From Aplysia californica (lineage: Eukaryota): a DNA stretch of 56,276 bases. Location: positions 1-56,276 of the forward strand of contig NW_004797968.1 in assembly GCF_000002075.1 (NCBI RefSeq), written 5' to 3'. Shown here in pieces: positions 5,538-48,359 of the stretch (its first letter is position 1; every line of letters starts with the position of its first letter). The position numbers and the translations under genes are program-made. Below the pieces are notes generated by a model that saw nothing but the letters and a program-made list of their open reading frames with translations, had not been told where the DNA came from and ran no database searches.

Positions 5538-8252
5538 ATGGCGTCAAGGAGAAGCCAACACACTGAACAACTCAAAGGCAAAGTCTGTGTCGTGACCGGA
5601 GCCAGCTCTGGGTTAGGGGAGAGCATCGCCATCATGTTCGCCCAGAGAGGGGCATCTGTCACCTTATGTGGCCGGAATGAGGACAGGCTCCAGGCCTCCT
5701 TGACCTTGTGTGTCCAGGCCAGTGGAGGTCAAGCTGACCGCTTTTTGGCCGTGAGCGGGGACGTTGTCGACCTCTCTGCAAGGAAGGCGATTGTGGAGAA
5801 GACGGTAGAGAAATTTGGACGTCTGGACGTGTTGGTGGCTAATGCTGGTGTAGCAGATCCTCATTGTGGTATTCTGACTGCCAGTGAAGAGACTTTTGAT
5901 AAAATCATGAACACGAATGTAAAAGCAGTGTTCTTCCAGATTCAAGAAGCGGTGCCACATCTGGCAGCGAGCAAGGGCAACATTATCGTTGTGTCATCCA
6001 TGTTGTCATTTATGGCTTGCTCACCCAACATCCTGTATCCGATGTCAAAAGCGGCAGTGGATCACATGATCCGATGTCTGGCCGTCGACCTTGGGCCGAA
6101 AGAGATCCGGGTCAACGCTGTGAATCCTTCCCTCATTCCCACAAGAATGCGTAGGTTTGTATTTTGTCCTGGCTTGATTTCCACGAGAAGTTTACGTTAT
6201 TCTAGAATATTTTATTTCAAAATGAATCGGAGTCAGCTTTTTAAAAGGTAGATTATCAATAAACCCTTAAGAACAAAATAAAAGAAGAAGGGCAGAAAGT
6301 CACGAATATATCTGGAAAGAAAGGGAAAAATTGTTACCTTAGAATTTGAAATTCAATCAGGTAAAAACCAGAGGCTTTGGCTACATTGCCCTTTGATTCA
6401 CAGCATATTGAAACAGCGAAATAACACCAGTGGCAAAGCTGACTACGCTAATAGAAAGGAATACATGACCGTGAATTAGTAGATCTTTGAAAAGACAATC
6501 ATGTTCACTACTCCTCACCAATCACTTTTAATTCACCACAACCCAGACAAGGCATGGTAAAGCAGCTCAGAAAGAATTTGCATTCAGAACTTTCACATTT
6601 TTCTCTGCAACGAATTACATCTTTATTGTGGATTTCAGTGGTAAACTGTATGATCTTATTACCCCCCCCCCTTTTCCCAACCTTCTGAATCCTCTCCCTC
6701 TATTTTCAGAGACTACGCCCCCGATGAAGAAACTATGGATAAGCAGTACAACCAAGCGCTTGTCCCAGAAATTGAAAAACAGGTCTGTGGTCTCAAGTCC
6801 ACGTTTTGTACGTTCTCAATACCTGCCTGCCTGTGCTTTGCGCTGCAAACCTTGAAATTGACCTGCTTTGTGGTAATTAAAATCAGGGGTTTGGCACATG
6901 TAGTTCCAAATTATTCTTATTATTTCTGCTAGAAGTAGAAGACTCCGATCGAAAGTAGATCACTTAGGCCCCCGATTCCTTGGTGGAGCACAAAACATCA
7001 AGGAAAAGTTTCAAAAGGGATGATGGAAACCCTCCTATTTCTAACTTAAAACGTTCGAACGTTAGTCCTTTGGTAAGAGAAAAAATCCAAGCTGTCTTTT
7101 TTCATCTTCTTATTCATTCTAAATGAATCAGTCAATCTGGTGGTGTGCACAAGCTATGCAGTTTTTTGAAGATTTTTGAACGTACCCGGTACCTTTTAAC
7201 GCCCTTTCCCCTGCAGTGTAGTTTTCCATGTCTGTGCTCTTGGTCAAGCCCCCATCCAGTATTTCAACAGCGGCAGGCATATTATTGCTTACCGTGTCTC
7301 TTTTGTATTCCTAACGGTGGTAATTTTCTGTGCTTACGAGAGGTTATCCCAAGCTTGATAAAAAGAAAACTTCTCTAAGATGAACCTGCTTTACAGCACT
7401 TAGTTACTTATTGGTATTTTCACATTTAGTTTAAAAATAACGACCGCAGACCTCTTGGACTGGCGTCTGGGAGGTAATGGGTAGACTCTTTGCTGTTGCA
7501 CGCTGATGACGTGAATTTGATTCTCGATTGGAACATTTTATTTTATCAGATATATCTTAATGTCACTACTGGGATGCAGCATTCCACTCAGCTCGGGTTG
7601 GCCCTTATAGACAGAGTCGAAGTAGCTTGCGCTTTTAAATGTTATAAATTGTCTCACTAAAGACGTAAAAAATCAATTCATTCCTTCAGCCTTCAATTAT
7701 AATGTGATTCAGATTCAAGCCCAAACTCATATTATAATATACAGATTATTTTCAAACGTTTGGAGCTCCAGAGCCTCCAGCAATTGTGAATTAACTAGGG
7801 AAGGGGATATTGAAATGATTTTGCTACGAAATTTTATGTAATGTCTTCTTATTTATCCAATCCTTTCTTATAACCCGATGTCCCCTTATATCTCTTGTGA
7901 GTGCTTGGTGGGTGCTCTGGTGTGGTTTGCTCCTTTATTCCCATCAAACGTCTTTCGTTATTTCCTCTCCTCCTTTGCATGTTTCTCTCTTGTAAAAAAA
8001 CCCAACTAATTTCCGACACTTATGACCTTATTTGTGTTGCATGCAAGTGTCATAAAACGTTTACTAAAACTAAACTAAAACCGATTTGAAAATTATTTTC
8101 TCCAGCCTCTGGGCAATGTGGGCGTGACCAAAGAGGCAGTGGCTGAGGCTGTGAGCTTCCTTGCATCGGACGCCGCCAGTTTCCTCACAGGTCTGTGTAT
8201 GCCGGTGGATGGCGGCAGATCTTTCGCGGGGACATTTGGGAACAAGTCCTAG
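5538..8252 (+). CDS. Classical SDR / FabG-like oxidoreductase, copy 1 (278 aa); exons 5538-6154, 6710-6782, 8106-8252
   Basis: Motifs TGASSGLG, NAG and catalytic N127-S154-Y167xxxK171 (YPMSK), IRVNAVNP and C-terminal FLTGLCMPVDGG. GT-AG introns in phases 2 and 0 give one continuous frame. R46 after beta-2 suggests NADP(H) preference (inference). Confidence 0.93.
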
Positions 8253-11005: not shown

Positions 11006-11072
<67 letters not shown>

Positions 11073-13750: not shown

Positions 13751-16700
13751 ATGGCGTCAAGGAGAAGCCAACACACTGAACAGCTGAAAGGCAAAGTCTG
13801 TGTCGTGACCGGAGCCAGCTCTGGGTTAGGGGAGAGCATCGCCATCATGTTCGCCCAGAGAGGGGCATCTGTCACCTTATGTGGCCGGAATGAGGACAGG
13901 CTCCAGGCCTCCTTGACCTTGTGTGTCCAGGCCAGTGGAGGTCAAGCAGGCCGCTTTTTGGCCGTGAGCGGGGACGTTGTCGACCCCTCTGCAAGGAAGG
14001 CGATTGTGGAGAAGACGGTAGAGAAATTTGGACGTCTGGACGTGTTGGTGGCTAATGCTGGTGTAGCAGATCCTCAAAGTGGGATTCTGACTGCTAGTGA
14101 AGAAACCTTTGATAAAATAATGAACACGAACGTAAAAGCTGTGTTCTTCCAGATCCAGGAAGCGGTGCCACATCTAGAAGCAAGTAAAGGCAACATTATC
14201 GTTGTTTCATCCATGTCGACACTCATGGCGTGTTCACCCAACATAGTGTATCCGATGTCAAAAGCGGCAGTGGATCACATGATCCGATGTCTGGCCGTCG
14301 ACCTTGGGCCGAAAGAGATCCGGGTCAACGCTGTGAATCCTTCCCTCATTCCTACAAGAATTCGAAGGTTTGTAATTTGTTCTTGCTTGCTTTCCCCACT
14401 AGAAGTTGTACGGTATTTTAGGATATTTTATATATTAGAAAATGATTCGGATTCGGCTTTTAAAAAGGGATATCAGCGCTAAAACTTTTAACCCAAATCA
14501 AACGAAAAGGGCAAAAAAGCCATGAAAATATCCTGAAAGAAAGAGAGCGCTTGTTATCGCAGGGTCTGAATTCCAATCAAGTAAGACTTAGAGGCTTCAG
14601 AGTGGGTTTTTACGAAATTACATTGGCACTTTGATTTGGCAGCGAACTGACATAAAACGGGTCGCAAAGCTGACTAAGTGGGTGGTTGGCGGGTGCTCTG
14701 ATGTGGTTTGCTTTCTTCTTTCCTATCAACCATCTATCGTCCTTATCTCCCCTCCTTTTTATGTTTGTTACTCTCTTGCAACATCTCTAATCTCTAATCT
14801 TCTGGCACTCATGTGACCTTATGCAGTTGCGAGCGCCGTAAAACCTCTACTAAAACAAAACAAAAGTTGACTAAGTTAAAAGGGAACATATGACCGTAAT
14901 GGGTCAGCCTTGAAAAGAGACATTATGTCCACTACTCCACATCAATCCCTTTCTCTTCACCACAACTCAGGGAAATTATGGCAGAGAAGCACGCATTCAG
15001 AACTGTTACATACTGCGATTCTACCCGTTATCTTGGGTTTCGGTTGTAAGCTGTATGATCTTATTACCCCCCCCCCCCAACCCCCCAACCTTTTGAACCC
15101 TCACCCACTATTTTCAGAGACTACGCCCCCGATGAAGAAACTATGGATAAGCAGTACGCCCAAGCGCTTGTGACAGAAATTGAAAAACAGGTCTGTGGTC
15201 TCACGTCTACGTTTTGTATGTTCTCATTGTACCCTCACTCTTCTTTCTGCTTCCCGCTAAACTGCCGTGAGGAATGCTTTTACTTGTTTGTCGTGATTTT
15301 GGTTACCAGTAAAAAGTAAAATTGTTCTCGCATCCGATCCGGACATTGGGGATTGTCTTGTTAGTGAGACGACTTCCTAGGCCTTCGGCATATTGTGGTA
15401 GGATGGCCAGTTTCTTTCCACGCCGCCTTTACTTCCCCAATTCGAAGTGAGGTACCCATTACTGCTGGGTGAGCAGGAGGGGGCGAAAAAGTACGTGTCC
15501 GAACCGAGGCTCGAATCCGGACTTTTCGCTTCGGAGACGAACGCACTAACCGCTCCGCCACCGCACCCTTTGGTGACCAGTAAACACACTAATGAGCTTA
15601 AAACGACACGCGAAATAGCAAGTCAGAGTATATTTTGCATAGAAAGAAATTCTCTTAATTCACTTGCCTGCTGCTTTGCGGAAATTGAAATCGGGGGGAG
15701 GGGGGGGGGGAGAGTTCCGAATTATTTTAAACATTATAAATTTTCTTCTAAATACTCCGCTCGAGATTTCCAAGTCTGTGGTATAGTGATGAAATCAGGC
15801 GCTTGTTAAAATAATGATGTTGAAGAAACCGACATATTTTAACCCCTTGGAAAATTGTTATCGATTTTTTCCCTCTACACCCTTTATATCCAGTTACAAA
15901 CATGTTATTATCTGTTCAGATTTCATTGCAAAACGACGATCAAAAGTACAGAAGGTGTAAATAAGCAATTTCAATTGGAGGTCATTTTCTTGCTAATTTT
16001 GCCTCTGATACCAAGCAACGAGCCTCTGCTGGTTGGGGGGGGGGGGGGGGGGGGGCGTAGTTTTACTATGGGGGAGCAAAGAATACACCTGCCGTGGTAC
16101 TGCGTGTCGTAAGAGGCGACTAAAAGTGCATAGGTCTGGTCGCCCGAAAAGTGCCAGTTTGCGGAGGGCCAACTGCCCAACCCAGTAAAAAACAGTAAGT
16201 TACAGAAACACGGACGAACACAGCTTTTTATTTTTCGATCTTGGAAGACGGAGGAGCTTCTGCATCAGCAGGAACAATGAAGGACTGCGGACAAGGCCGA
16301 AAGGACTCTTCTGACCCGAAACTTTCTCTGTCGAACAAGTCTCTCCGCATTGCGTCGTGGAATGTTCGCATCTTGTATGAAGCAGGAAAGAGTTCTCAAG
16401 TAGTACAAGAGATGAAGAGATACAGACTGCACATACTAAGAGTCAGCTAAACACACTGGATACAGTCTGGACAGAAGCAGCAACATCAAGAGGCTAGCCC
16501 ATGATAGAGAAAAGTGGAGGGTGTTTGTCCGTGGCCTATACCCTGGTGCAGGGTGAGAAAGGCACTGATGATGATGACTCCGCTCGAAACTAGATCACCT
16601 GTAGCACAAAACTTCAAAGAATATTTCAGAAGGGATGATAAAAACCATTCCATTTCTAACAAAGAACATTCGAACGCTGGTCCAGGGGTACGAGTAAAAA

Positions 16701-18126
16701 TCCCAGACAATCTTATTTCGTCCTCTTCTTCCTTCTCGGTGAATCTGTCAATCTGGTTGTGTGCACAAAACATGCAGTTCTCTTAGATTTCCGAACAAGA
16801 AGCTCCTTTTTTGTTCTTTCTCCTGTAGTCTAGCTTAACAATATTACTATTACCCCTTGGTAATGCTCCCAATCAATACATTATATATATTGAAATAGCG
16901 GCCGACAGTATAGCTTACCGTGGCTGTTTTGCATTCCTAACAGTGGAATTTTCTGTTCTTTTAAAAAAATGGTGAAATGGTATAAGTTTAACTTTAACGC
17001 CCCCTATCAGCGCTTCTGAGAATGTTCTAAATTGTTTCAATATGGACATAAATAATCAATCAGTTCTCTCATTTATACAACTCAGATTCAAGCCCAAATT
17101 CAAATACCCATCTATCTTCAAAGGTTTCGCGTTCCAGAGCCTCTAGCAATGTGGTTAATTAATCAGGGAAGGGAAAACGGCACTCATTTTGCTGTTTTTA
17201 AAGATATCATGTACATATAATTTCATCTCATCCATCTCGTTTCATTTTTCCGTACAGCTCTATTTACAAGTATATTCACTTGTTGATATGTCTATTCCTA
17301 TTTCGTGCCTTCCAATCGTATGTCACTACAGACCATCTGATCTAATTGCGTATGTCGTTGGTTTCGGTTGTGGGAGGAGAGACGGTGGGGNNNNNNNNNN
17401 NNNNNNNNNNNNNNNNNNNNNNNNNNNNNNNNNNNNNNNNNNNNNNNNNNNNNNNNNNNNNNNNNNNNNNNNNNNNNNNNNNNNNNNNNNGGGGGGGCAC
17501 TAGCATGTTTCTGTTTGCATGTCTTACTTTCCCCTCCAACACACGGTTGTTAAAGTTTCGATTTCTTTCACTTTTTAAACATTTAGAACTTAACTCGAAA
17601 CTAGGTCAGGTTTCATTTTTGCTTTTGGTTGGTGGTTGAACACGGCTCTAGAGATCCATGTTTTCGCCTTTTTTGTGCCCGTCTATTCGTTTTTATTTTC
17701 TATAAATATAGAGGTGTAGTGTTCATGTGCTCTCTTTTTTCAAACTCGTTTTTATATGTCCTCAACCCTTTTTAGTGTGTGGTCAGCGGAAGCTCTAGTG
17801 TGGTTTGCTCCTTTTATCTTATCAAACATTTTTTGTTCTTATCTCTCCTCCTGTGTTTGTTACTCCGAAGTTACGTATCTAATCTTCGGCATTGACATGA
17901 CCTATTTATGTTGTAGGCGCTGCCAAACTTTGATTAAAACTAAACTAAAAACAACAATTTTGAACATTATTTTCTCCAGCCTCTGGGCAATGTGGGTGTG
18001 ACCAAAGAGGCAGTGGCTGAGGCTGTGAGCTTCCTAGCATCGGACGCCGCCAGTTTCCTCACAGGTCTGTGTATGCCGGTGGATGGCGGCAGATCTTTCG
18101 CGGGGACATTTGGGAACAAGTCCTAG
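13751..18126 (+). CDS. SDR / FabG-like oxidoreductase, copy 2 (278 aa); exons 13751-14367, 15118-15190, 17980-18126
   Basis: Same motifs, exon lengths and phases as copy 1. Exon 2 reads DYAPDEETMDKQYAQALVTEIEKQ. Frame is intact. Confidence 0.93.
14686..14865 (+). mobile_element. 5'-truncated SINE 3' fragment in intron 1 of SDR copy 2
   Basis: Ends ...ATGTGACCTTATGCAGTTGCGAGCGCCGTAAAACCTCTACTAAAACAAAAC. A closely similar fragment lies at ~43060-43240. Confidence 0.7.
15314..15568 (-). mobile_element. tRNA-derived SINE of a second family
   Basis: Minus strand GGGTGCGGTGGCGGAGCGGTTAG (A box) ... GGATTCGAGCC (B box) with central CACCCAGCAGTAATGGGTACC motif. 16-bp TSD TTTGGT(T/G)ACCAGTAAA at 15298-15313 and 15569-15584. 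Confidence 0.85.
15765..16576 (+). mobile_element. TSD-bounded composite insertion ending in an internally deleted RTE-clade LINE derivative (~16080-16576)
   Basis: APE endonuclease N-terminus (LRIASWNVRILYEAGK...EMKRYRLHIL) joined to an RTE-like C-terminus (LAHDREKWRVFV) and a (TGA)n tail. TSD ACTCCGCTCGA at 15754-15764 and 16577-16587. Confidence 0.8.
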
Positions 18127-21456: not shown

Positions 21457-21654
21457 TTTGATGTTTGAAAGGGGTTAGATACATTAGATTTGGAAACCAA
21501 TAAACGTTTAGGTCCCCTTAGAACAAGAACCGGTGTGTTTTTAAGAGAAATAATATGACTGATATTCAGGATTCTCTTCTTTTAATAAAAAACAGCCATG
21601 GTAGATAATCATCCGAATGAGCAAATATCGCTAATACCTCCTGCAATCACACAG

Positions 21655-21658
<4 letters not shown>

Positions 21659-21717
<59 letters not shown>
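21659..21717. repeat. (CA)n microsatellite
   Basis: Seen directly. Confidence 0.95.
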
Positions 21718-21718
<1 letters not shown>

Positions 21719-22661: not shown

Positions 22662-25600
22662 ATGGCGTCAAGGAGAAGCGAACACAATGAACAACTCAAA
22701 GGCAAAGTCTGTGTCGTGACCGGAGCCAGCTCTGGGTTAGGGGAGAGCATCGCCATCATGTTCGCCCAGAGAGGGGCATCTGTCACCTTATGTGGCCGGA
22801 ATGAGGACAGGCTGCAGGCCTCCTTGACCTTGTGTGTCCAGGCCAGTGGAGGTCAAGCTGACCGCTTTTTGGCTGTGAGCGGGGACGTTGTCGACCCCTC
22901 TGCAAGGAAATCGATTGTCGAGAAGACGGTAGAGAAATTTGGACGTCTGGACGTGTTGGTGGCTAATGCTGGTGTAAACGATCCCAAAACTGGAATTTTG
23001 ACTGCCAGTGAAGAAACTTTTGATAAAATCATGAACACGAATGTAAAAGCAGTGTTCTTCCTGATTCAAGAAGCGGTGCCACATCTGGCAGCGAACAAGG
23101 GCAACATTGTCGTTGTTTCATCCATGTCGTCAAGAGCAGCGAGCTCACCCAACATAGTGTATCCAATGTCAAAAGCGGCAGTTGATCACTTGACCCGATG
23201 TCTGGCCGTCGACCTTGGACCGAGAGAGATCCGGGTCAACGCTGTGAATCCTTCCCTCATTCCCACAAGAATTCGTAGGTTTGTATTTTGTCCTGGCCTG
23301 TTTTCCACGAGAAATTGTATGGTATTTTAGGGTATTTTATGTTGCAAAAATTAATCGAAACCATATTTTTGAAAGGTAGATCAGCACTATAAACCCTTAG
23401 ATTTAATATAAACGAAAAAGGTAAAAAGCCACACAGATATCCCGAAAAAGGAAGAACTCGTTACCGTAGAGTTAGAATTCCAATCAAGTAAGAACCAGAG
23501 GTTTCTGAGTGGATTTTACGACGCTACATTGTCACCTTGATTTGACAGCGCATTGAAACGGTGAAACAACACTGGTGGCAAAGCTTTAAAAGAGAAATAA
23601 TTGTGTCAACTACTCCATATCAATCCTTTTCCACACGAAGTATGGTAAAGCAGCTTATGAATAATTTGCATTCAGAACTTTCACACTTTGCTCTGCAACG
23701 AATTTAGTCTTTATCATGGGTTATCCGTATTATCTTTTTAAGCCCCCCCCCCCCAACCCTTTGAACCATCTCCCTCCATTTTCAGAGAATTCGCTCCCGA
23801 TGAAGAATCTTTGGATAAGCACTTTGCTGAAGCGCTTGTCACAGAAATTGCAAAACAGGTCTGTGGTCTCAAGTCCACGTTTTGTATGTTGCCATTGTAC
23901 CCTCCCTCTGCTTTCTGCTCCACACTAAATTGCTATGAAGTACGTCTTTATTTGTTTGTTGTGAGTATGTATGGTGACAATAATAACATTAATTACTCAA
24001 AACGACCCGCTNNNNNNNNNNNNNNNNNNNNNNNNNNNNNNNNNNNNNNNNNNNNNNNNNNNNNNNNNNNNNNNNNNNNNNNNNNNNNNNNNNNNNNNNN
24101 NNNNNNNNNNNNNNNNNNNNNNNNNNNNNNNNNNNNNNNNNNNNNNNNNNNNNNNNNATTATTATATTCCTGTGGCGTCCAAAAGAAACTTGAAAATGTA
24201 ATTGCCCAAAAATCGTTCTAAAGCCTTGTAAATTTAGAAGCATTTAAAGGCCCTTTTCGGAGCCTGCTATTAAAACCGTGTCATCTGCATACCTGATGTT
24301 ATTAATATTTTCTCCATTAACTTTGAGGCTTGGACTCTTCTATGTTTCTAAGGATTGTTTCACTGTACATGTTAAAGAGGTCTGGTGACATAACATATCC
24401 TTGCCTCATTCCTCGCCTGATCTGCGCAGCGCAATCTTAAGTTGGCCGTGCAATTTTACGATCGTAAAAACGCGCAGTAAGATTTCGCAAATCGGTAAAA
24501 TTGCGAGGAACATATACGAGGGTCGTTTAAAAAGTTTTGCCTCCAAGTTCTTAATTTCTTTATTACTGATGTTGCATACAAAAGGTATACACTAAATGAA
24601 AGCTTAGGATGTCTGCTAAATGACAGTGCCTTTACTTTTCGACATAGTCGCTTTCTTTGTCGAGGCAGATCCGCAAACGTTGAATAAGTTGTCGCTTGTC
24701 GTCGGCGAAATATTAATGTAGTTTTCCTCTGAACCTACGACGCACATCTCCTTGAACTTCATCGTCATCTGCAAAACGTTTTCCTTTAAGGTACTCCTTC
24801 AACTTAGGAAAGTCAGATGGAGCAATGTCTGGACTGTATGGTGGGTGCGGTAAGGTCTCTTGAAATCTGAGACTTTTCATGGCATCTTGAGTTTGTCGAC
24901 TCGTGTGTGGACGGGCGTTGTCGTGGTGCAAAATTCATTTTTATCCGGGCCGAACTCGTGACAACCGTGCTCTACGTTTTCTCAGGGTATCAATATATCG
25001 TTCAGAGTTGATAGTGGAACCCTGTTTCAAAAATTCCATATGAATCAGACCATCGCAGTCACAAAACACTGTCATAAGCACTATCTTTGCAGATGCAACA
25101 ACTTTGAACTTCTTTGGGGTAGGTGAGCCAATGTGCCTGTATTCTTTCGATTGTCTTTTGTTCTCTGGGTCATACTGGTGTACTCAAGTCTCGTCTCCTG
25201 TGACTATACGATGTAAGAAAGCTTCACCTTCATCAATATAACGAGCCAGGAGTTCATCACTAACTTTCAGTTTCCTTATTACTGGTTCAATTTCCGGTCG
25301 GGTGATAACATGTGGGGAACCCACCGTGCACACACTTTCCTGTAACCCAACACATCATGGATGATATACTAAGCACTCCCCACAGAAATCTCTAGCAATT
25401 CACTGACATCTTTTACTTTGATCCGCCGATTTGCTTGGATGATCTCACCCACTCTCTCCTGGTGTTGAACATCACTGGCAGAATTGGGACTACCACAATG
25501 AGCCTGGTCATGCAAATCTGTCTCTGCTGGACTGGTTTCAGCGAACTCCTTTGCCCACCTTTGAACAGTACTTACAACTACACATGCTTCACCATAGACA

Positions 25601-27429
25601 AGCTTCATTCGCTTGTGACTATCGATGGGTGCAGCTCCCTCTGCAGTAAAGAACTCAACAACAGCTCTTTGCTTCAAGCGCACATTCATAGGTTTGATGG
25701 ACGCCGTTTTCTCGGCGACAATGTACCCTAGCTACCTCGATGTAAACAGCAAGAGCATAAAGGTGTGACATTACAGCATAATTCTGTTTTCTGGGTTTGA
25801 GAATGTACATATTGAAAGTCAATTGTGTACACATTTCATGAAGATATCTTGAATAGTTTAGAAGTTATTAGAGAGGGGGCAAACCTTTTTAAACGGCGTA
25901 AGTATTATTGTATAAAGAAATGCCCTCCCCCCATTGCCTGCTGCTTTGGCGCTGCAAACCTTGAAATTGACCTGCTTTGCGGAAATTCAAATCAGGGGTT
26001 TGGAAGTTCTAAATTATTCATATTAATATTATTTCTGAGAGAAGACTTCGGTCGCAAGTAGATCACCTGTTTAGACCGCCTGATTCTTTGGCTGGGCACA
26101 AAACATCAAGGAAAAGTTTCAGAAGGGATGATAAAAACCCTTATATTTCTAACTAACAACGTTCGAACGTTAGTCATGGGGTATGTGAAAAAAATCCAGG
26201 CTGTCTTTTTTCATCTTCTTCTTCCTTCTCAATGTGTCAGTCAATCCTGTGGTGTGCACAAACTATGCAGCTTTTGAAGATTTTCGAACGTACCATTTAC
26301 TGTTCTTTCTACTCTAGCGTAGCATATTGCCACGTCTGTGCTTTTGGTCAAGCCCCCAACCTGTATTTTACAGCGGCCGACAGAATTGCTTACCATGGTT
26401 CTTTTGTATTCCTAACGGTGGTATTTTCTGTGTTAACGAGAGGGTATCCCAAGCTTAATAAAAATTGTGTCAATGTGGACGTAAACAGTCAATCAATTCC
26501 TTTAGCCTTCAGTTATAATACAATTCAGATTCAAGCCCAAACTCAAATATTCTAACTATCTTCAAACGTTTGTCGTCCCAGAACCTTTAGCAATGATGAA
26601 TTAATCAGGGATAGGGAAATGGAAATGATTTTGCTACTTTTTTAGAAATGTCATGTAATGTCATCTCCTTTCTCCAATCCTTTCTTATAACACGATGTCT
26701 CTTTTTATCATCTTATATCGTATCGTCTTTTATATCGTCTTGACGATCAGTCTGTTCCTAGATTTCGAGCCATCCCATCTTATGCCATTGCATATAATAT
26801 AGCATCTGATCCAATTGAGCATGCCGTCAGTTTTCTAACCCTCCCCTACAAAATAAGGTGTTAATGTTTCGCTTTGTTTCACTTTTTTTCAAACTCAACT
26901 CAAAACTTGATCAAGTTTTATCTTTGCGTATGGTGTATGTTTGGAATCACCACTAGAGGCCCTTCTTTTCCTCTTATTTTTTATCAGTCTATTCGTCTTT
27001 TTTCCCTACAATGTTGTAGGTTTACGTGCTGTCTTTACTTTCAAACTCATTTTCTACGCCTACAGCCCTTTCAAGAGGATTGTTGGCAGGTGCTCTGGTG
27101 TGGTTTGCTCATTTTTCCCCTTTCAAACATCTTATGTTCCTATATCTCCTCCTTTGCATGTTTCTCCCTCGTAGAAAGCTTAATTTTCGGCATTTATATA
27201 ATATGACCTATTGGTGTTGCAAGTGCCCTAAAACGTTTACTAAAATGAAACTAAAACCGATAACAAAAATTATTTCCTTCAGCCCCTGGGCAGTGTGGGC
27301 GTGACCAAAGAGGCAGTGGCTGAGGCTGTGAGCTTCCTAGCATCGGACGCCGCCAGTTTCCTCACAGGTCTGTGTATGCCTGTGGATGGCGGCAGATCTT
27401 TCGCGGGGACTTTTGGGAACAAGTCCTAG
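22662..27429 (+). CDS. SDR / FabG-like oxidoreductase, copy 3 (278 aa); exons 22662-23278, 23786-23858, 27283-27429
   Basis: Same motifs and splice phases. Exon 2 reads EFAPDEESLDKHFAEALVTEIAKQ. Frame is intact. Confidence 0.93.
24515..25900 (-). mobile_element. Full-length degenerate mariner transposon in intron 2 of SDR copy 3
   Basis: TIR TACGAGGGTCGTTTAAAAAGTTTTGCC and a degenerate GGCAAACCTTTTTAAACGGCGTA. Disrupted transposase from 25689 (MNVRLKQRAVVEFF) with WVP, VTGDET, HDNARPH and HPPYSPDIAPSDF motifs. Confidence 0.93.
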
Positions 27430-29399: not shown

Positions 29400-29440
<41 letters not shown>

Positions 29441-31912: not shown

Positions 31913-31916
<4 letters not shown>

Positions 31917-34900
31917 CAATCACCCTTTTGCTTCGCAGACTATACGCTCTAGTTCGCAGACAAGGCGCCTGAAGCTCCCAATCCAGTTATATAATATAAT
32001 GCATGTTGATGCTAAATATAATAACTAGGTCAGTTGTGGTAAACTACAAAGTCTACAATACAGTGTGGAAGGAGGAATTAGGCCTATGAAGTTTGATAAG
32101 GGCTGATTTGGTAGTCTCCATAGCGAGGGATTTTTCCACTTTGTCCTGATAATTTTAAAGTGATAACACTAGAAGCTGGTCAGGAAGAGAAAAACGTTCG
32201 ATGGTCTGTACACATTCGCAAAGGAAGACAGTGTATTTCAAAGACAGATGAACTGATACCTGTACGTTTTATCCTCAAACTTGATTGGAACACGCCAGTC
32301 GTAATTCGTAAGTAGTAAGGCATCACACCAATGTTTATTGTTTATTGTTTTCCTTTAATTAGCCTACTTAGTGTGTATAATAGAATAAATAGAGCACGAA
32401 CTTACCTTGTGCAGCTGGATGTAATTGTTAAGTTCCCTTCTGTTTTTCTGTAGGTTTGCCTTGCTTTTCCCCAGCTCTAAACGACACTTGCCGTGTCGAT
32501 GTGCTTCTCTTTTTTATTATGCGTATTTTAAGGGATATTGCTTGCTGCTTCACTCTTGTAGTAGTGGGGCCAGGTGAACAGAATTATTTCTTCTGCTAGC
32601 GTGTCATGCGTACAATAGAAAGCTGCTTTAATAGAATTGGTAAACGCGCTTCTTGCCATGAGATCATTCGCCACACATACCAATGTCGGACTGAAGCAGT
32701 ACCGCCAGATGTTTAATTGAAGCTGGTCTCAACAAAAACAAGCATACGCAAAGGAGAAAACGGAATGTAGTCGGTCTGGCTTTATCAAACACATCTGCTT
32801 CCATCACCACTTTGTTTCCCTTCCCCATTCACGGCCTACTTTGTGCTGCTTCCTCCGTCACTCCTGCTTCTTCCTGCCGTCACTCTTNNNNNNNNNNNNN
32901 NNNNNNNNNNNNNNNNNNNNNNNNNNNNNNNNNNNNNNNNNNNNNNNNNNNNNNNNNNNNNNNNNNNNNNNNNNNNNNNNNNNNNNNNNNNNNNNNNNNN
33001 NNNNNNNNNNNNNNNNNNNNNNNNNNNNNNNNNNNNNNNNNNNNNNNNNNNNNNNNNNNNNNNNNNNNNNNNNNNNNNNNNNNNNNNNNNNNNNNNNNNN
33101 NNNNNNNNNNNNNNNNNNNNNNNNNNNNNNNNNNNNNNNNNNNNNNNNNNNNNNNNNNNNNNNNNNNNNNNNNNNNNNNNNNNNNNNNNNNNNNNNNNNN
33201 NNNNNNNNNNNNNNNNNNNNNNNNNNNNNNNNNNNNNNNNNNNNNNNNNNNNNNNNNNNNNNNNNNNNNNNNNNNNNNNNNCAAACCAATGTGCCAGCAT
33301 CTGGACAATAAAGATTTATCGTATCTTTTCTGATCTTGTCTTATCTTATCTTATCTGGTTCTTTCTATTGCTATCCCTGACTCCTTCTAACTGCACCGTC
33401 TTTCAGCTACATCCCTGATCTTAGAAGACGAAAAATCTCGGCAGTTGCTCATGTTAAATTTCCGTTGGTGGTCCTAAAATTGATAGGAGTAGGCTTAGGT
33501 CACCCCTCGGACAAAATATAAAATTAATTCCTTCCAAAACTTACAAAAGTCAGTATAAAACAAGATATAGAGTACCTTCAAAATCTAAATGCGGCTGCTT
33601 GAAGGCAAGGGGCCATACGTGTAGGAAAATATGTCACAGTTGCACTGCAAGTTGAAGAATCAGCTGTCGGCTAATTCTGAAATCAAGCACATGAACGCAA
33701 AGAAGAAAGATCGAGTGTCTCGGTCTGTTTGAGACGTATCCCTCTCAGCCCAGGTTGGTCTTGACAGGCAGGGTCGAAGCCCATATCTTAAATGATCTTG
33801 TGTTGGTGGGTGTGAAAAACCCTTATATTAAAATCTTTATTTTTTTAATAAAACAGGCTATACCCTCCACCCTGAGACTTGGCCAAAATTGTATTCTGTA
33901 AAGGTGCATTGTAGCAGAAGGAACTTTTTATGTTTGAAAAAGGTTGCACTAAATTTAGAAACCTTTGAATCTTAAAGATTGTTCCCCTTAAAACAAGAAC
34001 TAAAATGTTTTTACGGGAAAAAATAATCATCCGTATGAGCAAATATCGCTATAAAGCCCCCTGCATACACACATCGACCTCTCGTTGTCCACTTTGGACG
34101 ATTTGTAATCTTCGACACTGCACCTTCTTCAACACGATTCTCTTTCTATCTCCCTCTATCATAGAAAGAGGGCATTTGGATAATCGCCTTTCAAACCGAA
34201 AGACCCTATAACAATGTATTGTACTTTTATAATCTGACGGTACTTTCTCGAAATATGGAATAGTCTGATCTTTGAATGATTGAAATACTATTCCGCTGTC
34301 CACACAATAATGGCTGAGTGTGAAATTCAGAAAAAGACCTGGAAAGAAACAAGTATTTCAATGAATTGTACGTGTGTCCAGATACTGTCCGTGTGAGGCG
34401 AACGCTTAAACTGTTGTGAAATACTGGGACAATAGGCTCAATGAATTTGAAAAAAGAACCCGATGTGCTATTTATAGCCGATTGAAGCATGGTCTATCTT
34501 GTTGCTGTTACGAGTTCTTCTGGGAATAACTTCTATATCTACTGTGTCCAGAAAAATATGGCAGACATTTGATTCAGAAGGACAGAATTGACGGTTTGTT
34601 ACGGTTGACAAATAATGAATTATAATATGGAAGTACTGGCACAAGCTAAAAAAATTAACTCGTAATCGCTGTTTTCGTCTCAGGGGCACTGACCAGGTAT
34701 TCGTGTAAGGGTAAGGTGTTCATTTTGCATAACGTAAATCACATTTTCTTTGTGTATTTCTTTGAAGAGTGAGTCCTGAACGAATTTTTTTCAAGAGTTA
34801 CCACTGCCTGCAAATAGTAACCTCCGTTGACTGAATCGAAGACAACTTGGGTACAAACCTTTACCCCAGACTTCAGACAAAATGGCGTCAAGGAGAAGCG

Positions 34901-35509
34901 AACACAATGAACAACTCAAAGGCAAAGTCTGTGTCGTGACCGGAGCCAGCTCTGGGTTAGGGGAGAGCATCGCCATCATGTTCGCCCAGGGGCATCTGTC
35001 ACCTTATCTGGCCGGAATGAGGTAAGGCTCCAGGCCCCCATGACCTTGTGCGTCCAGGTCAGTGGAGGTCAAGCTGACCGCTTTTTGGCCTTGAGCGGGG
35101 ACGTTGTCGACCCCTCTGCAAGGAAGACGATTGTGGAGAAGACGGTAGAGAAATTTGGACGTCTGGATGTGTTGGTGGCTAACGCTGGTGTAGCAGATCC
35201 TCAAAGTGGGATTTTGAATGCTAGTGAAGAAACTTTTGATAAAATCATGAACACGAACGTAAAAGCAGTGTTCTTCCAGATTCAAGAAGCGGTGCCACAT
35301 CTGGCAGAGAGCAAGGGCAACATTATCGTTGTTTCATCCATGTTGTCATTCATGGCGTGCTCATCCAGTATTTTGTATCCAATGTCAAAAGCAGCAGTTG
35401 ATCACATGATCCGATGTCTGGCGTCGACCTTGGACCGAAAGAAATCCGGGTCAACGCTGTGAATCCATCACTCATTCCCACAAGAATTCTTAGGTTTGTA
35501 TTTTGTCCT

Positions 35510-36049: not shown

Positions 36050-36828
36050 TGGCTTGCTTTCCACGTTGTACGTTATTTTATAATATTTTAAACAAAAGGT
36101 AGATCGGCATTAACCCTTTAAAATGAAACAAAGAAGATGGGCATAAAGCCACGAAGATGTCAAAAGAAAGGGAGAACCTGTTGCCTTATATAGAGTCTGA
36201 ATTCCAATCAAGTAAGCACCTCAGGATTTGGAGCGGATATTTACGAAGATACACTGCCACTTTGATTTGATAGCGTATTGAAACAGTGAAATAACGGCAG
36301 TCGCAAAGCTAAGTTAAAAGGGAACATATGACCGTGAATGGGCTAGCCTTTAAACGAGAATTATATCCACTATTCCACACCAATCCCTTTCACTTCATCA
36401 CAACCCACGACAAATGAACTAAGCAGGACGGCCCAATTTTTGACAGATACCAGACTTCAATTGTGATGCGATCGAGAAGAAGAAGATCACAACCCAGACA
36501 AAGTATGGTAAAGCAGCTCAGAAATAATTTGCATTGAGAACTTTCACATTTTGCTCTGCAACTAATTTTGTCTTTATCATGGGTTTCGGCGGTAAACTGT
36601 ATGATCTTATTACCCCCCCCCCACACACACACACTCTCCCCAACTTTTAAAACCCCCTCCCTCTATTTTCAGACACTACACCCCCGATGAAGAAACTTTG
36701 GATAAGCTGTACACCCAAGTGCTTGTCTCAGAAAATGAAAAACAGGTGTGTGGTCTCAAGTCCACGTTTTGTAAGTTCTCTTTGTACTCTCACTCTGCTT
36801 TCTGTTCCACGCTAAACTGCTGTCAAGT

Positions 36829-38284: not shown

Positions 38285-41200
38285 CGCTCTGTAGAAAGTG
38301 TAGATTTTGTTCCTTGTATAAAGAATTTCTCTCCCCCACCTGTCTACTGCTTTGCCCTGCAAACCTTGAAATTGACCTGCTTTGTGTAAATTCAAATCAG
38401 GAGTTTGGTAGTTCCAAATGATTCTTCTTATTTCTGCTAGAAGACTCCGCTCGAAAGTAGATCACCTGTTTAGGCCACCCATTTTCTTGGCTGGGCACAA
38501 AACTTGAGGGAAACGTTTCAGAAAGAATGATAAAAATCCTTCTATTTCTAACTTTAAACATCCGAATGTTAGTCCTGGGGTAAGAGAAAAAAGCCCCCAG
38601 GATGTCTTTTTTCATCTTCTTCTTCCTTCTCAATGTGTCAGTCAATCCAGTGGTGTGCACAAACTATGCAGTCCTTGAAGATTTTCGAACGTACCATTTA
38701 CCGTTCTTTCCCCTGTAGTGTAGTATTTTTATTGCCATGTCTGTGCTCTTGGTCAAGCCCCAAACCAGTATTTTAACAGCGGCCGACAGAATTGCTTATC
38801 GTGGTCCTTTTGCATTCCTAACTTTGGTATTCTCTGCGTTTAATGAGATGGTATACCACACTGGATAAAAACAAAACTTCTTTACGAATCTGCTTTACAG
38901 CACTAAGCTCCGCATCGGTATTTTCACATTCAGTTTAACGACCGCAGATCTCTTGGACCGGCGTCTGGGAGGTAATGATTAGGCTCCTTGGTGTTGCACG
39001 CTGAAGACGTGAATTCGATTCTCGATTGGAAAAAATTATTTTATTTTATTTTATATATTGGTGTCTCTGCTGGGATGCCACATTCCACACAGCTTGGATT
39101 GGCCCTTGTTGTTGGAGTCGAAGCAGATTGTGCTACAGAATGTTCTATATTGGTTCAGTATATTAACGTAAACAATCAATCAATTCCTTCAGTTACTCAA
39201 CTCAAATTCAAGCCCAAATTCTAAAGAATTCCATCTATCTTTAAAAGTGTGGAGTTCCAGAGCCTCTAGAAATGGTTAATTAATCAGGGAAAACAAGCGT
39301 AGATTTTGCTACCTAAAAAAAGTCATGTATTGTCATATCACTTATCTCGACCCGTCCTTTCTTATTCTACAATGTCTCCTTATAATTATCATCTGATTTC
39401 GTATCGTCTTATTTAATCTCTTATCTCTTGTCGATCTGTCCATTCCTATTTCGTGCCATCCCATCTTATGTCATTACACACCATCTGATCTAATTGAGCG
39501 TGTCGTTGACATTAAAAAAATGTTTGGGGAGTGCGTATGGTGGGCGGTTGGCCCTTCTTTTCCTTTTATTTTCTGTCCGTCTATTCATCTTTATTTCCCA
39601 AAATGTTTTAGATTAAGGAGCTTCCTTGTTTTCAAACTCATTTTAGTACGCACACTATTCTTTTAAAAGGGTTGTTGGCGGGTGCTCTGGTGTGATTTTA
39701 TCCCCCCCCCCCTTATCAAACATCTTTTGTTCTTACCTCTCCTCCCTTGCATGTTTCTCACTTGTAAAATGCCTAATCTTTGGCACTTATATGACCCATT
39801 CGTGTTGCAAGTGTCATAAAACGTTTACTAAAACTAAACTAAAACCGATTAAAAAATTATTTCCTTCAGCCTCTGGGCAATGTGAGCGTGACCAAAGAGG
39901 CAGTGGCTGAGGCTGTGAGCTTCCTTGCATCGGACGCTGCCAGATTCCTCACAGGTCTGTGTATGCCGGTGGATGGTGGCAGATCTTTCACGGGGACATA
40001 ATTTGGGAAGTAGTCCTAGTGCTGGGGAATCTACCTATACAGTCACGTCCGGACTTTGGACACAGATAGCCCGAGACAGAGTGTTTTACACAACATTTAC
40101 AAAGACCAAGAGTTGATGGAATTACAATTAAACAGAAAATTTGAATGACTTTAATTTTTGGAAATTGGTGTTGACTCCTGCTTCAAAATCCTATTATTAA
40201 TATCATGTTTCCTCCCCAGTTCCATCTGGCTTACTTCCACCCCATTTTACAAAAAGAAGCACTGCAAACTTGAGAGTGCCAGAGCAAAGTGCATTCTGCT
40301 GAAAACACCACTCTTTCAGCGCGGTGCATAAAAAAACACTGTGTCCTTCCAGGACGGAGAAATAGGGGAGGGGGTCTGAAATTATAATTTGAAAAAAAAA
40401 ATGTTTGGGGGGGGGGATGCCGTATCGACTACAGATCGTCCTCTAGCGCAGGTATGACACTTGATACCAATGCTGTGTCTTGGATGGACTTGGAAAGACA
40501 AACAGGTGACAATTTCAGGAATCAGGGGGATGTCGTGTCTTTAATTTAATTTCTCTCAAATACTTTTCTTCATCTCAACCTAGTGTGTTGATGGGAAATG
40601 AGTGTATCATGTTAGACCTAAAATAGATTGCATGTTGTTAGGTGTCAAACACCATGTAAAAGCCTCATTATAACAAGGTGATGGATGGGTGAAAGGTGTG
40701 GCTGGTAGGCCCGGTTCTTTGTTCCTTGTCTTGTTTTCGTCTGCATGTTTAGCATTTTGAAGCACACCGTAACTATAATCTTATACAATGTATATATCAT
40801 AATTATGCCTCGTAGATGTGTCTCCTATTTATTAACACAGACTGATGGCAAAGGTGTCGAAACTAGTGTGCTGGTCGGCTATCAATTTTAGATCTATCAA
40901 TTTATGCGGTTGTGACGATCTGTCAATTTATACGGTTATGACGATCTATCAATTTGTANNNNNNNNNNNNNNNNNNNNNNNNNNNNNNNNNNNNNNNNNN
41001 NNNNNNNNNNNNNNNNNNNNNNNNNNNNNNNNNNNNNNNNNNNNNNNNNNNNNNNNNNNNNNNNNNNNNNNNNNNNNNNNNNNNNNNNNNNNNNNNNNNN
41101 NNNNNNNNNNNNNNNNNNNNNNNNNNNNNNNNNNNNNNNNNNNNNNNNNNNNNNNNNNNNNNNNNNNNNNNNNNNNNNNNNNNNNNNNNNNNNNNNNNGA

Positions 41201-42831: not shown

Positions 42832-43498
42832 CATAAATCCAATTTCGGACTTAAGCTATACACGCTACTGAATTGCAAATTATTGAAACCCGTGTGTATT
42901 TTGCACGATAAATTGTGGGTGTCAGTGGCCATAGTACAGAATATCGCCTTGTTCGTATTTGAATGTGGTCTCCACAAGAAAAGGCATAATATCATGAAAA
43001 GAGGAATACAGAATATTGTTATCTGTCCGTTTTTATCAAACAGCAAACATCTGAAGCTGGGTGGGTGGTTGGCGGGTGCTCTGGTGTAGTTTGTTCCTTC
43101 TTTCCTATCAAACATTTATCGCCCTTATCTCCCCTTTTTCTTTTTTTATGTTTGTTACTCTCTTGTGACACCTCTAATCTTCTGGCGCTCATATGACCTT
43201 ATGCAGTTGCGAGCGCCGTAAAACCTCTACTAAAACTATAACTAACTCTGAAGCTGCTACAGGCTACAAGCGTCTGTGGTGTAACGGCTAGGCGCTTTAC
43301 CTTTGCGCACAAAATGGTTTGGTTTCAGTGAGGAGGAGGATTTTAATAAAGTATTTCGGTCTTTCTGCTGGGACATTGTGTCCCTCTCAGCTCAGGTTGG
43401 CCCTGGCACTGACAGAAAAGGTCGGAGCCTGCTTCCTAGATTGTCTAAATTGGGTCGATAAAATGGTGGTAAAGCACCTACATTTTTTAATTTAGAAA

Positions 43499-44020
43499 GG
43501 GGGCTCTCGTGGCTTACAGGTTAAGGTGTTCGCCTCTCATTCAAAGGTCCGGGGTTCGAATCCGGGTAGCGACCGAAAAATTTTCTTCTCTAAAATTGTC
43601 TCCTTTCACTGCTCTCTAGCAATGTTCTGTTGTCTGCTTTCGTCACCACTTTCTGCCGACCACCCCCTCACTTCTTTTGACCCCTCCTCTGGGCTCCTGA
43701 CTTTTTCTGCAGCCTTTCTACTGCTACTCTCTGGCTCCTACTTACTGCTGTCTTTCTGCCATACCCCTGATCTTCTGGTAGGAAAGATCTACACCTAGAC
43801 TTCTGGGACAATGGCAGAAAATCTCGGAGGTCCGGTGTGCAAGTTGTGCACGATAAAGATCCCTTGGTGGTCTCTAATAAATAACGGTAGGTTTCGGCCG
43901 CCACCCGGGCAAAACTCAAAATTTCCCACCAACCGAAAATGTTTAGTGTGTCCCGTACGCTCATATGACCTTATGCAGTTGCGAGAGTGGTAAAAAAAAC
44001 TATTTAAAAAACTATTTTAA
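43499..44020 (+). mobile_element. tRNA-derived SINE, young family
   Basis: Same head, body and tail as 4717. It interrupts TTTAGAAA|CAGGCT, which is contiguous in units 1 and 2. Confidence 0.88.
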
Positions 44021-44277: not shown

Positions 44278-45142
44278 CAGGCGCGGTTCGTCCATAGAGC
44301 ACGGTCGTGCAGTGCCGCCCAAAATGTTTTAATGTTCTATGACGTAAAGCACACACAATAATAAAATAAAAGACGCCAGAAACAAACACTAGCCAAATAT
44401 TATATCAAAACTAGGCCTTCGCTGGAGCTATAACTGTCGTTTCTATTCTATAGCGCCGTAAATCATCTACTATGCCATGCCTAAGTTCATGCGCTGTATC
44501 TAAACATAACAGGATAGTCAACAGTAGAAACCTGACCTATAAATCGCTCTTTGGGATAACCCAAGCGATGACGACACTTGTAGAGAGTTTGGCGGTACAT
44601 TAATATTAATAAGACGGCACATCTCAAATGTGCTCCTGCCGAATAGCGCAAAAACATAGCCCAGAGTAGGCAATCTAAAAATAAAGGCCATAGACTGTGC
44701 ACCTTTCCATGCCAAAATTATGTGGGCCCGGGAGCAATCCAGCGGAGTGCTCAAGTGAATTGTGATTGGTTCAATGTCTTGTCGCTATTTTAAGTGACTC
44801 TGTGACCGTGAACCTAAGGGAGGTGAACGTGACATACTTAAGTCGCCGTCCTATGAGTTGTGCTTTTGAACGGTTTTGTAGTGGATTGGGGAAAGGTATT
44901 ACTTGAGTGTTCAGTTCTAACGCAGGATGAATGAAATTGACGTTTAGCTAACAATGGTAACAAACAGATTTAGTTCTAGAAGTCACAAGTTAAAAGAATG
45001 AAAATAAAAGCACAAGGTCTTCCTTCACCAACCCAAAGATCCTAAAATTATACACCATCCCATTTACTCTGCCCTTGATTATCTTCATCCTAAGATAGCT
45101 TAATTGTGCACGCCCACTTTTTAGACCCACGAGCCGCCCCTG
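44278..45142. mobile_element. hAT-like non-autonomous element
   Basis: TIR CAGGCGCGGTTCGT / ACGAGCCGCCCCTG with 8-bp TSD GTCCTTGC / CTCCTTGC. Confidence 0.7.
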
Positions 45143-46117
45143 CTCCTTGCGTACACACGTCGACCTCTCGCTGTCCTACTTTGGACAACTCGTAATCTTT
45201 GACACTGAGACCGTCAACACGCTCTGGCCTTTTTATCACTATCTATCTTGGACAGAAGGCATTTGGATATAGTCTATAAGACTGGAAGACCACATACATG
45301 TATAATTATATATTTTTATAATCTTACGGTACTCTCTCTAAACCTGGAAAAGCCTGATCTTACAATTATTGAATTTCCATTATATTGTCTACACATTTAT
45401 CTTGGTGTGTGACATTCGGGCAAAATGGCTGAAAAGACGTGAGACTTCCGATCTTGTAAAAATTCTCAGTGCAGTGTTCTGTGTTCAGATGTTGTCAGTG
45501 TGTGGTGGACGCTTAAACAAAATCTTGTGAAGATCGTGACGAAAAGCCCAACGAATTTGGAAAAGAGAAATACGTGCTTTGTGTAGTCTCTTGAATTGTG
45601 GTCTAAGTTGTCGTTATTTATCCTAACTTCTGAAGCCTCAGTATCTAAAGAAAGGGGATAAAACTTTGAATCGGGCTGATTAATAAATTAGGACATGTTA
45701 GTGTTGAAAAATAGTTAAAAGGTGGGAATGTTTAGACAGGGCTTTAATAACACGCTGCCATACGTGTACATGCATGTTTAAACAAGACTGTCAAGAACAT
45801 ACACGTTCGATTAAAATTCAATTTGGAATTAATATCAATTTTGAAATAATTACCCCCCCCCCCAAAAAAAAAGCAAGCGAAAGCGGTTGAAGCTTTTTAA
45901 AAATAACAGAATTTGCTATTGTGGTCTCCAGCGCATTTAGCAGGTATGCTTTAAGTGTTAGCTAATCGCCAGGAATATTTTTCTGCGTATTTCTTTGAAC
46001 AGTAAGAGCTCATTGTATTTTATTGTTCAGAAGTTAGCATTACCGGCAAAGAGTTGTTTCCATTGACTGAATTGAAGACTACTTAGGCACAAAGCTTTAC
46101 TCCAGACTTCAGGTAAA

Positions 46118-48359
46118 ATGGCGTCAAGGAGAAGCCAACACAATGAACAACTCAAAGGCAAAGTTTGTGTCGTGACCGGAGCCAGCTCTGGGTTGGGGGA
46201 GAGCATCGCCATCATGTTCGCCCAGAGAGGAGCATCTGTCACCTTATGTGGCCGGAATGAGGACAGGCTGCAGGCCTCTTTGACCTTGTGTGTCCAGGCC
46301 AGTGGAGGTCAAGCTGGCCGCTTTTTGGCCGTGAGCGGGGACGTTGTCGATCCCTCTGCAAGGAAGGCGATTGTGGAGAAGACGGTTGAGAAATTTGGTC
46401 GTCTGGACGTGTTGGTGGCTAATGCTGGTGTAGCAGATCCCCAATGTGGGATTCTGACTGCTAGTGAAGAAACTTTTGATAAAATCATGAACACGAACGT
46501 AAAAGCAGTGTTCTTCCAGATCCAAGAAGCGGTGCCACATCTGGAAGCGAGCAAGGGCAACATTATCGTTGTTTCATCCGTGTCGTCAAAGATAGCGAGC
46601 ACACCCAACATAGCGTATCCGATGTCAAAAGCGGCAGTTGATCACATGATCCGATGTCTGGCCGTCGACCTTGGGCCGAAAGAGATCCGTGTCAACGCTG
46701 TGAATCCTTCCTATGTCCCTACCAGAATTCACAGGTTCGTGGATCTCTATAAACCAAAATTGTTGTTAGAAATAAGACTTTACTTTCAACCTCATGTGTA
46801 ATATAGGAAACAGATACATCTATTGGACACTAGTAAACCATAAATGGAACGCATCTACGAATATGTTTTCAAACATATTGAGAATTCCTTTTTTTATAAA
46901 CTTCTTATTTTATTTAGCTCGATTGACGCCATCATTTTTTTTATAGCAACGAGTATGTATAGTCAGTTAGCCCTATAGTTTCCTGACAACATGGTGCAAT
47001 AAGAATGACAATGTTTACACTTGTGTGTTGATAGGAAAACATGTATTTACGCCAATTATATAAATACTTATACATGTATTCTCAGAAAAGAGATAAATTG
47101 TGCGTTCTTATGCTAACAATCACGTTTTTTTCAAATAACATTTCTATAACTTTTCTTTTAAAAAATGAGGACAAAGCTTATATAATAAAAATGGTATTGC
47201 AAAATACTTGTGGAACAGACTAATAGTAATACACATTTGGNNNNNNNNNNNNNNNNNNNNNNNNNNNNNNNNNNNNNNNNNNNNNNNNNNNNNNNNNNNN
47301 NNNNNNNNNNNNNNNNNNNNNNNNNNNNNNNNNNNNNNNNNNNNNNNNNNNNNNNNNNNNNNNNNNNNNNNNNNNNNNNNNNNNNNNNNNNNNNNNNNNN
47401 NNNNNNNNNNNNNNNNNNNTGTCTGTCTGTCTTTCTCTGTCTCTATTCATATCTCACCCCCACCCAGTCGTGTACGTTACGTAAGTTAGCTCTACCGATA
47501 TTATTATTATCTTCGTTTTACCACCCGCAGTTCAACGAAGCCCTACTTTTCTTTCGCCACAGGGTGCCCAGTGAAACGGCGGGGGAGGCGCAAGAGTTCT
47601 TGTTGAACATTGAAGCCATGGTAGCTGCAAAGCATGTATGTAATCTAATGACGATTTATAATAATATATACTGTCATTATCAAAGCTTCATAATGAGTAT
47701 TCTCTCATAAACACTTCAGCATTAATCCCCCCCCCCTCGCACACACAAATACACTGACACGTATACACACACCTGCGCAAACATACAACACACACAGATG
47801 CACACACATGAACACACATACAACACATACATACAACACACACATATATACAACACACGCACACATACACACACGCCTCCTCCCCCAACCAACACACCTA
47901 CACACATTTATCAACCCATCCACACATACATGCACACACATGCTGGTTGAAATATCCTACATTTTGACGTTTTCGACTGGACGCTGGACGACCGAGGAAT
48001 GTAGGTAACTGAAGACGAAACCGTTAGACAGAGAGCTCCTTTCTTTTGTACGTTATCGTTATAATACTATAACTCTGTGTGATCTTTTTAATCACGTAAA
48101 TAACAAAAAATGTCCAATCCATTTCATGACCAAGTTGCAAAATTATTACCCCCCCCCCTCCTCTCCATGTCTAATAAAAGAATATATCACAACCCTTTTT
48201 CCCCAGCCACTCGGAAACAGATGTATCAGCAAAGACGCCGTAACCGAAGCAGTGTCTTTTTTGGCTTCCGATGCCGCACGTTTTATTACTGGTCAGTGCC
48301 TCCTGGTGGACGGAGGCAGACATTTGATGGGCTTCCTTCACCGCCCAGTCCCAAAATAA
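46118..48359 (+). CDS. SDR / FabG-like oxidoreductase, copy 5, divergent 3' half (280 aa); exons 46118-46734, 47563-47635, 48207-48359
   Basis: Exon 1 resembles the other copies. The 73-nt exon 2 (VPSETAGEAQEFLLNIEAMVAAKH) has cag/gtatgt sites and the same phases. Exon 3 reads PLGNRCISKDAVTEAVSFLASDAARFITGQCLLVDGGRHLMGFLHRPVPK*. Confidence 0.9.

Follow-up and report, generated by a model that had tools for sequence, protein, structure and literature searches.

The window analysed here, a 56,276-nucleotide stretch of an Aplysia californica contig, carries a tandem array of classical short-chain dehydrogenase/reductase (SDR) genes: four intact three-exon genes (c1, c2, c3, and c5), a pseudogene (c4), and a lone exon 3 (c0). 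Genes were called by six-frame translation, self-comparison, and reading of splice sites. Each of the five three-exon genes is on the forward strand, and its coding exons, which are bounded by AG/GT, measure 617, 73, and 147-153 nt in turn. The reading frames of c1, c2, c3, and c5 are open and, over 270 compared residues, identical to P0003, P0095, P0094, and P0001, respectively; these four and P0096 are NCBI-annotated A. californica proteins.

In c1, exon 1 (5538..6154) encodes residues 1-206, including the Rossmann fold and N127, S154, Y167, and K171, exon 2 (6710..6782) encodes the lid helix placed at 212-229 by the structure model, and exon 3 (8106..8252) includes the stop codon. The corresponding exons lie at 13751..14367, 15118..15190, and 17980..18126 in c2, at 22662..23278, 23786..23858, and 27283..27429 in c3, and at 46118..46734, 47563..47635 (with phases as in the other copies), and 48207..48359 in c5. 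In the pseudogene c4, exon 1 (34882..35493; 612 nt) carries 4-nt and 1-nt deletions, exon 2 is at 36673..36745, and exon 3 (39870..40018) has a small insertion and a premature stop. The c0 exon 3 (3893..4039, forward strand; residues 231-278) matches the C-terminus of P0096, the rest of which is encoded by c0 exons 1 and 2 on the reverse strand of another contig (G000:C701:43969-43353 and 42741-42669); neither c0 exon 1 nor exon 2 was found within the window, and no c0 exon 3 was found on C701. A genome search returned six loci at >80% identity among 41 matches, and tblastn detected no further SDR exons in the 20 kb past the window or in C701:1-25000. The second exon of c1 has a tandem acceptor (CAG/AG) at window positions 6708-6712, and the NCBI isoform X2 (P0002, 235 aa) reads exon 2 in a different frame, which would drop the lid and the C-terminus.

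The array proteins (278-280 aa) are classical SDRs by Pfam match (PF00106, adh_short; 167 and 165.6 bits vs. a gathering cut-off of 26.6), by motif set, and by modelled fold. TGASSGLG at residues 20-27 (TGxxxGxG), NAG, N127, S154, Y167, and K171 (YxxxK) are kept in all five intact proteins, and the structure model (pLDDT 94.8) has 1xhl as its best match (TM 0.86), with the Caenorhabditis elegans structures 1xhl, 1xkq, and 1spx as neighbours. A basic residue after beta2, combined with the lack of an acidic residue at the end of that strand, indicates a preference for NADP(H). Arg46, within CGRNEDR, is present in five of five intact proteins, with no acidic residue at the end of beta2, and the proteins are therefore likely to be NADPH-dependent carbonyl reductases as far as the primary structure tells. 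Identity as FabG (3-oxoacyl-ACP reductase) was rejected, with TIGR01830 scores of 149-153 bits vs. an equivalog cut-off of 297.75; the NCBI label "FabG-like" is an automatic one, with scores that fall well short of what the FabG equivalogs require. The most plausible substrates are small carbonyls, either endogenous or derived from the diet, an assignment that we offer tentatively.

An earlier interpretation made from the letters alone (the sequence-only reading) held that the first ~100 residues are almost invariant, and only 5 of 100 positions do vary among c1, c2, c3, and c5. It further held that differences pile up in three places, namely residues 106-110, residues 155-166 between Ser154 and Tyr167, and the 73-nt exon 2. 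The numbers and residue strings that it quoted match the sequence, but one of the five entries belongs to the pseudogene: the fourth entry in each list (ADPQS and MLSFMACSSSIL) was given as an intact copy and is actually that of c4, whose first exon is frameshifted and whose third has a premature stop. Clustering within exon 1 is evident among the four intact copies, where residues 1-197 have 23 variable positions, of which 11 fall in the two exon-1 segments (17 of 197 positions), and the 12-residue window 155-166 contains eight variable sites (p = 0.00045 vs. random placement, in a scan that allows for post-hoc window choice). The largest block of differences, however, is no pocket segment but the C-terminal half of c5. 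Among c1-c3, exon 2 is variable at 10 of 24 positions, and exon 3 is invariant like the N-terminus (1 of 48 positions variable); c5 shares 4% identity with c1 over residues 207-230 and 67% over 231-272. Much of the apparent hypervariability of exon 2 is thus due to a single old half of c5.

In the structure model, residues 106-116 form the loop after beta4, residues 155-165 form the loop that connects beta5 with the Tyr helix, and residues 203-208 and 212-229 form two lid helices, in agreement with the post-beta4, post-beta5, and lid positions predicted for the variable segments. When the two sequences are set in register at the catalytic Ser, pocket residues 159, 160, and 165 of tropinone reductase (PMC3783447) correspond to array positions 155, 156, and 161. 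The proposal that exon 2 is a separable specificity module is weakened by the start of the lid at residue 198, in exon 1, by the exon's length and phases (73 nt, phase 2 to 0), such that skipping it shifts the frame, and by its travelling with exon 3 in c5. The segments are also combined differently among the copies: c1 and c2 have near-identical second exons, yet different beta5 loops, and the beta5 loop is common to c0/c2, c1/c4, and c3/c5, with the lid common to c1/c2.

Sequence has been exchanged between the exons of the copies, probably through gene conversion. Of the 112 polymorphic sites in exon 1, 32 are informative, 49% of informative-site pairs are incompatible, and the PHI test is significant at p = 0.036, 0.0004, and 0.0002 for k = 1, 3, and 5. 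The groupings of copies shift along the exon, from c3/c4 at codons 7-9 to c0/c2 at codons 130-157 and c3/c5 at codons 158-161; c0 and c2 share a tract at nt 390-472. Fourfold-site divergence is 0.08-0.14 in the scaffold vs. 0.16-0.23 in the introns (p < 0.05 in 9 of 10 pairs, which are non-independent), and reaches 0.21-0.38 in the pocket segments, as estimated from only 13-24 sites. The earlier claim of a homogenised scaffold is therefore upheld by the PHI results (p = 0.0002-0.04) and by scaffold silent sites at about half the intron divergence. No orthologous array from a second Aplysia species was present among 93 hits.

Selection was assessed with our own GY94-type codon models, using segments 106-117, 155-166, and 198-230 on c0-c3. 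With one shared silent rate, omega is 0.90 in the segments vs. 0.15 in the scaffold; a free silent rate fits better (2.9-fold in the segments, p = 0.0002) and gives omega of 0.40 vs. 0.20, the segment value being below 1 (p = 0.002), with the best and worst trees in agreement. Exon 1 of five copies likewise has a 3.2-fold silent rate in the pocket segments (p = 0.001) and omega of 0.48 vs. 0.19. For the two exon-1 segments of the sequence-only reading, a shared rate yields an omega of 2.0 (p = 0.01), and a free rate yields 0.81; the respective values are 2.0 (p = 0.04) and 0.72 for segment 155-166, 2.9 (p = 0.015) and 0.93 for segment 106-110, and 1.09 and 0.80 for exon 2. In all six pocket tests with a free silent rate omega is ≤1, and it exceeds 1 significantly in three tests, only with a shared rate; the shared-rate tests with omega above 1 used segments picked for being variable. 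The contention that replacement change is enriched in the segments therefore stands in relative terms (omega 0.4-0.9 vs. ~0.2 in the scaffold), but omega is never significantly above 1 once the silent rate is free. Rapidly changing specificity, as previously proposed, is not demonstrated, as the silent sites of the pocket are also ~3-fold more diverged; by these rates, the pocket segments look older and less constrained, not provably driven. More generally, dN/dS is misleading for arrays of this kind if the model leaves out conversion and variation in the silent rate.

Copy c5, a feature absent from the sequence-only reading, is on sequence grounds a chimera: its 5' flank and first exon derive from the c0-c4 lineage, whereas exons 2 and 3 come from a far older paralog. 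In the 5' flank (45142..46117), two to three blocks of 330-570 bases align to the flanks of c1-c4 with 18-25% mismatch, and exon 1 follows the c0-c4 lineage to about codon 198 (46711). Differences begin at codon 199 and are complete from codon 207, which places the break near codons 198-205. Beyond it, the protein encoded by exon 2 is 4-8% identical to c0-c3, and exon 3 is saturated at silent sites vs. c0-c4 (pS of 0.80-0.87, vs. 0.11-0.19 in the exon-1 scaffold). Fourfold sites differ at 9 of 84 positions in exon 1 vs. 11 of 16 in exon 3 (p = 3e-6), and the c5 introns cannot be aligned with the introns of the rest of the array (no aligned base in any of 10 comparisons). In quick and LG+G4 trees, the five Aplysia N-terminal halves form one clade (support 99) and the C-terminal half of c5 falls outside c0-c3 (97-98); the C-half trees do not resolve the source lineage of the old half (support 21-74). 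Outgroup proteins are 48-50% identical to c1 in the lid and 4-17% identical to c5, and the 3' half of c5 is therefore the old part. A contig of run X9, which is another sample with its own single-nucleotide polymorphisms in single-copy flank, bridges 46660-47240 of c5.

For this tandem SDR array, exon exchange, likely by gene conversion, is the probable explanation of a uniform core beside older, less constrained predicted pocket segments. In this scenario, tandem duplication would have produced c0-c4, and repeated exon exchange would have held the scaffold alike and reassorted tracts of beta4, beta5, and lid variants between copies. Conversion would be free in the scaffold and less often kept where it overwrites a pocket segment, giving rise to islands of divergence. 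Copy c5 would stem from one long event, in which an old neighbour received a replacement 5' flank and first exon from the younger lineage, and c4 would have died as a pseudogene.

A number of points weigh against this reading. Sawyer-type run tests are significant in only 1 of 15 pairs after correction when all sites are used, and in 0 of 15 with silent sites; the elevation of the silent rate is non-significant for single segments (p = 0.06, 0.16, and 0.47), and the fourfold-site values for the pocket come from the small number of sites given above. Silent variation is spread over codons 108-146 and is not limited to the loops, and the low silent divergence of the exons could partly reflect silent-site constraint. 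Codon 158, the most variable, has no counterpart among the listed tropinone reductase pocket residues (PMC3783447). The introns of the array are more diverged than its exons, the opposite of the situation described for human opsins (PMC3924837). Furthermore, the segment borders were chosen by the analyst after seeing the data, with two to six sequences per test.

The alternative that survives best, which we nonetheless consider somewhat unlikely, is neutral birth and death for dosage, whereby all copies would do the same job, the pocket would vary as the least constrained part of any SDR, and short or edge segments would be converted less. In its favour, variability across 53 homologs is also highest in these segments (mean entropy 2.4-3.1 bits vs. 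1.2; Spearman 0.30, p = 1e-6), free-rate omega is never significantly above 1, c4 is a pseudogene, and the c5 breakpoint is near an exon end, where homology stops anyway. However, the pooled segments are constrained, given omega below 1 for c0-c3, and still carry radical changes (K/R vs. L/F at 158 and S vs. C at 161), and the beta4 and beta5 islands are inside exon 1, off the exon edges, yet have 3.2-fold silent divergence. The weight that we give to neutral turnover, and to the positive selection considered next, should be read with the understanding that both overlap with the exon-exchange reading on conversion.

Less probable is the proposal of the sequence-only reading itself, that the array is a diversifying library under positive selection, with pocket residues driven apart for algal or defensive compounds. 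The shared-rate estimates above 1 for the two exon-1 segments, and for 155-166 by itself, are in keeping with this, as are the site models (M2a vs. M1a, p = 0.008; M8 vs. M8a, p = 0.003) and the c3-c5 differences in 155-166 (six replacement, one silent). The selected class, however, is codon 158 alone (L/F/R/K), with an implausibly high omega of 100-400 that is typical of multi-base change or recombination, and conversion is known to produce false positives in selection tests (PMC3924837); freeing the silent rate brings omega to 0.40-0.93, and for c0-c3 the estimate is significantly lower than 1. In family-variable columns, paralog variation is enriched in the pocket at two of three thresholds (19/48 vs. 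6/68, p = 0.00015; 17/42 vs. 4/34, p = 0.009), but the enrichment fades at the strictest (16/35 vs. 4/20, p = 0.08). In addition, c3 and c5 retain a loop close to that of the outgroup protein P0004 (VSSKVASSPNIV), and one of six copies is dead. More doubtful still is a combinatorial library, in which conversion would keep the cofactor chassis, reassort three selected pocket cassettes, and have grafted a modern chassis onto the ancient lid and C-terminus of c5 by breaking at the first lid residues, giving distinct reductases for algal metabolites of the diet.

An assembly artefact, with haplotypes placed in tandem or c5 as a false join, is very improbable, and for c1-c5 is already largely ruled out: although the array begins at the edge of a contig, c0 lies in pieces on two contigs, and c0 exon 3 breaks a flank that runs without interruption upstream of c2 and c4, divergence reaches 15-26% in the intron blocks that can be aligned among c0-c4, intron lengths and insertions differ as well, the run X9 contigs coexist, and one of them bridges 46660-47240 of c5. 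By their intron divergence the copies are true paralogs, and the possibility raised earlier that the copies are haplotype mis-assemblies is discounted by the introns and the run X9 contigs alike. Run X9 yielded, side by side, a c5 pocket contig (0 differences, depth 47), a c3-variant contig (depth 39.9; variants at 46565, 46580, 46675, and 46680), and a c5 intron contig (depth 39.4), with shared exon-1 stretches at depth 158-340; depth in this run does not equal copy number. The block containing c0 exon 3 (window 3250-4219) starts at a TA repeat and ends at a stretch of N, and is either a misplaced piece or a real insertion. Local misplacement of c0 is plausible, given its split over contigs and the interruption of an otherwise continuous flank by its exon 3.

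Several mobile elements are interspersed with the array. A ~530-bp dispersed element occurs at window positions 4716-5245 (+), 11727-12260 (+), 20925-21457 (-), 35514-36050 (-), and 43498-43995 (+), in copies that are 81-94% alike and have different insertion sites, with several more on C701; one copy sits in c4 intron 1, and the other four precede an SDR start codon by no more than ~2.2 kb. It is likely a short interspersed element (SINE), based on its tRNA-like 5' end, AAAC-rich tail, and apparent target-site duplications. Between c3 and c4, at 28997-30573, there is a PIF/Harbinger-type remnant with a MADF domain (+; PF10545, E 7e-7) and a DDE_Tnp_4 fragment (-; PF13359, E 2e-9). An open reading frame in c3 intron 2 (25369-25731, -), which we take to resemble the N-terminus of a mariner-type transposase, matched no Pfam family at E 0.01.

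Reads on c5 exons 1-2 numbered 0 and 1 in two raw polyA runs, with only 45900-47770 covered, and this counts as no test of expression. A literature search, with most subscription journals outside its reach, returned no paper on this locus; PMC9859523 deals with other Aplysia SDR families, and PMC5846779 with polyol dehydrogenases in gastropod digestive glands, with no link to the array genes.

The locus is thus a further example of a known process, namely an array probably shaped by conversion, with pocket divergence and a natural chimera; families of likely detoxifying enzymes commonly evolve by this route, and adaptive diversification is not demonstrated. Sharing 91-96% identity over residues 15-197 and diverging chiefly in the pocket segments, the five enzymes provide a ready-made series for probing SDR specificity residues, in which c5 represents a natural lid swap. 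Should the copies act on different algal compounds, they would offer a molecular handle on the processing of diet-derived chemicals by sea hares.

Divergence peaks under conversion have been described in the Teshima-Innan model, for human red/green opsins, and for a Drosophila transporter pair (PMC3924837; PMC2588116), and the Tigriopus GOT1 paralogs are another case of concerted evolution with such peaks (PMC3728101). As in the opsin, Drosophila, and GOT1 cases, the Aplysia array has paralogs probably homogenised by conversion, apparent islands of raised divergence that include silent sites, and rare conversion giving chimeric genes; unlike those cases, it has six copies rather than two and introns more diverged than exons, and selection is not established here. 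Within the SDRs, the array resembles groups I and II of Tetranychus urticae (PMC6288829) as a clustered, species-specific expansion in a herbivore, although in T. urticae a response to host plants was measured. Tropinone reductases I and II are likewise classical SDRs with a Ser-to-Tyr spacing of 13, and their specificity depends on a handful of residues in the lid and following beta4 and the Ser (PMC3783447); they differ from the array proteins in sharing ~31% identity with them, and register positions 108 and 164 are invariant in the intact copies.

The array proteins are also close to a heterobranch SDR subfamily ("FabG-like / TM_0325-like" in NCBI labels), with 53-75% identity to snail and slug proteins. 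In the land snail Bradybaena similaris, many consecutively numbered members are on one contig (BsWGS_12347-12377; P0014-P0054), forming a larger tandem set of the same subfamily, and in a subclade 9 of the 12 positions in 155-166 vary. In five Bradybaena members the catalytic Tyr is missing from the aligned position (e.g., "ALLSK" and "SLLSK"), and these members, from sequence, may be non-catalytic or use a different mechanism. Other SDR paralogs in the Aplysia genome, by comparison, are interrupted by an intron close to codon 189 and lack the separate exon of 73 nt; L005-L010 (G000:C638, C83, C56, and C921) and those on G000:C585 are 46-54% identical, differ in intron positions, and include small clusters of two or three genes on C83 and about four on C585.

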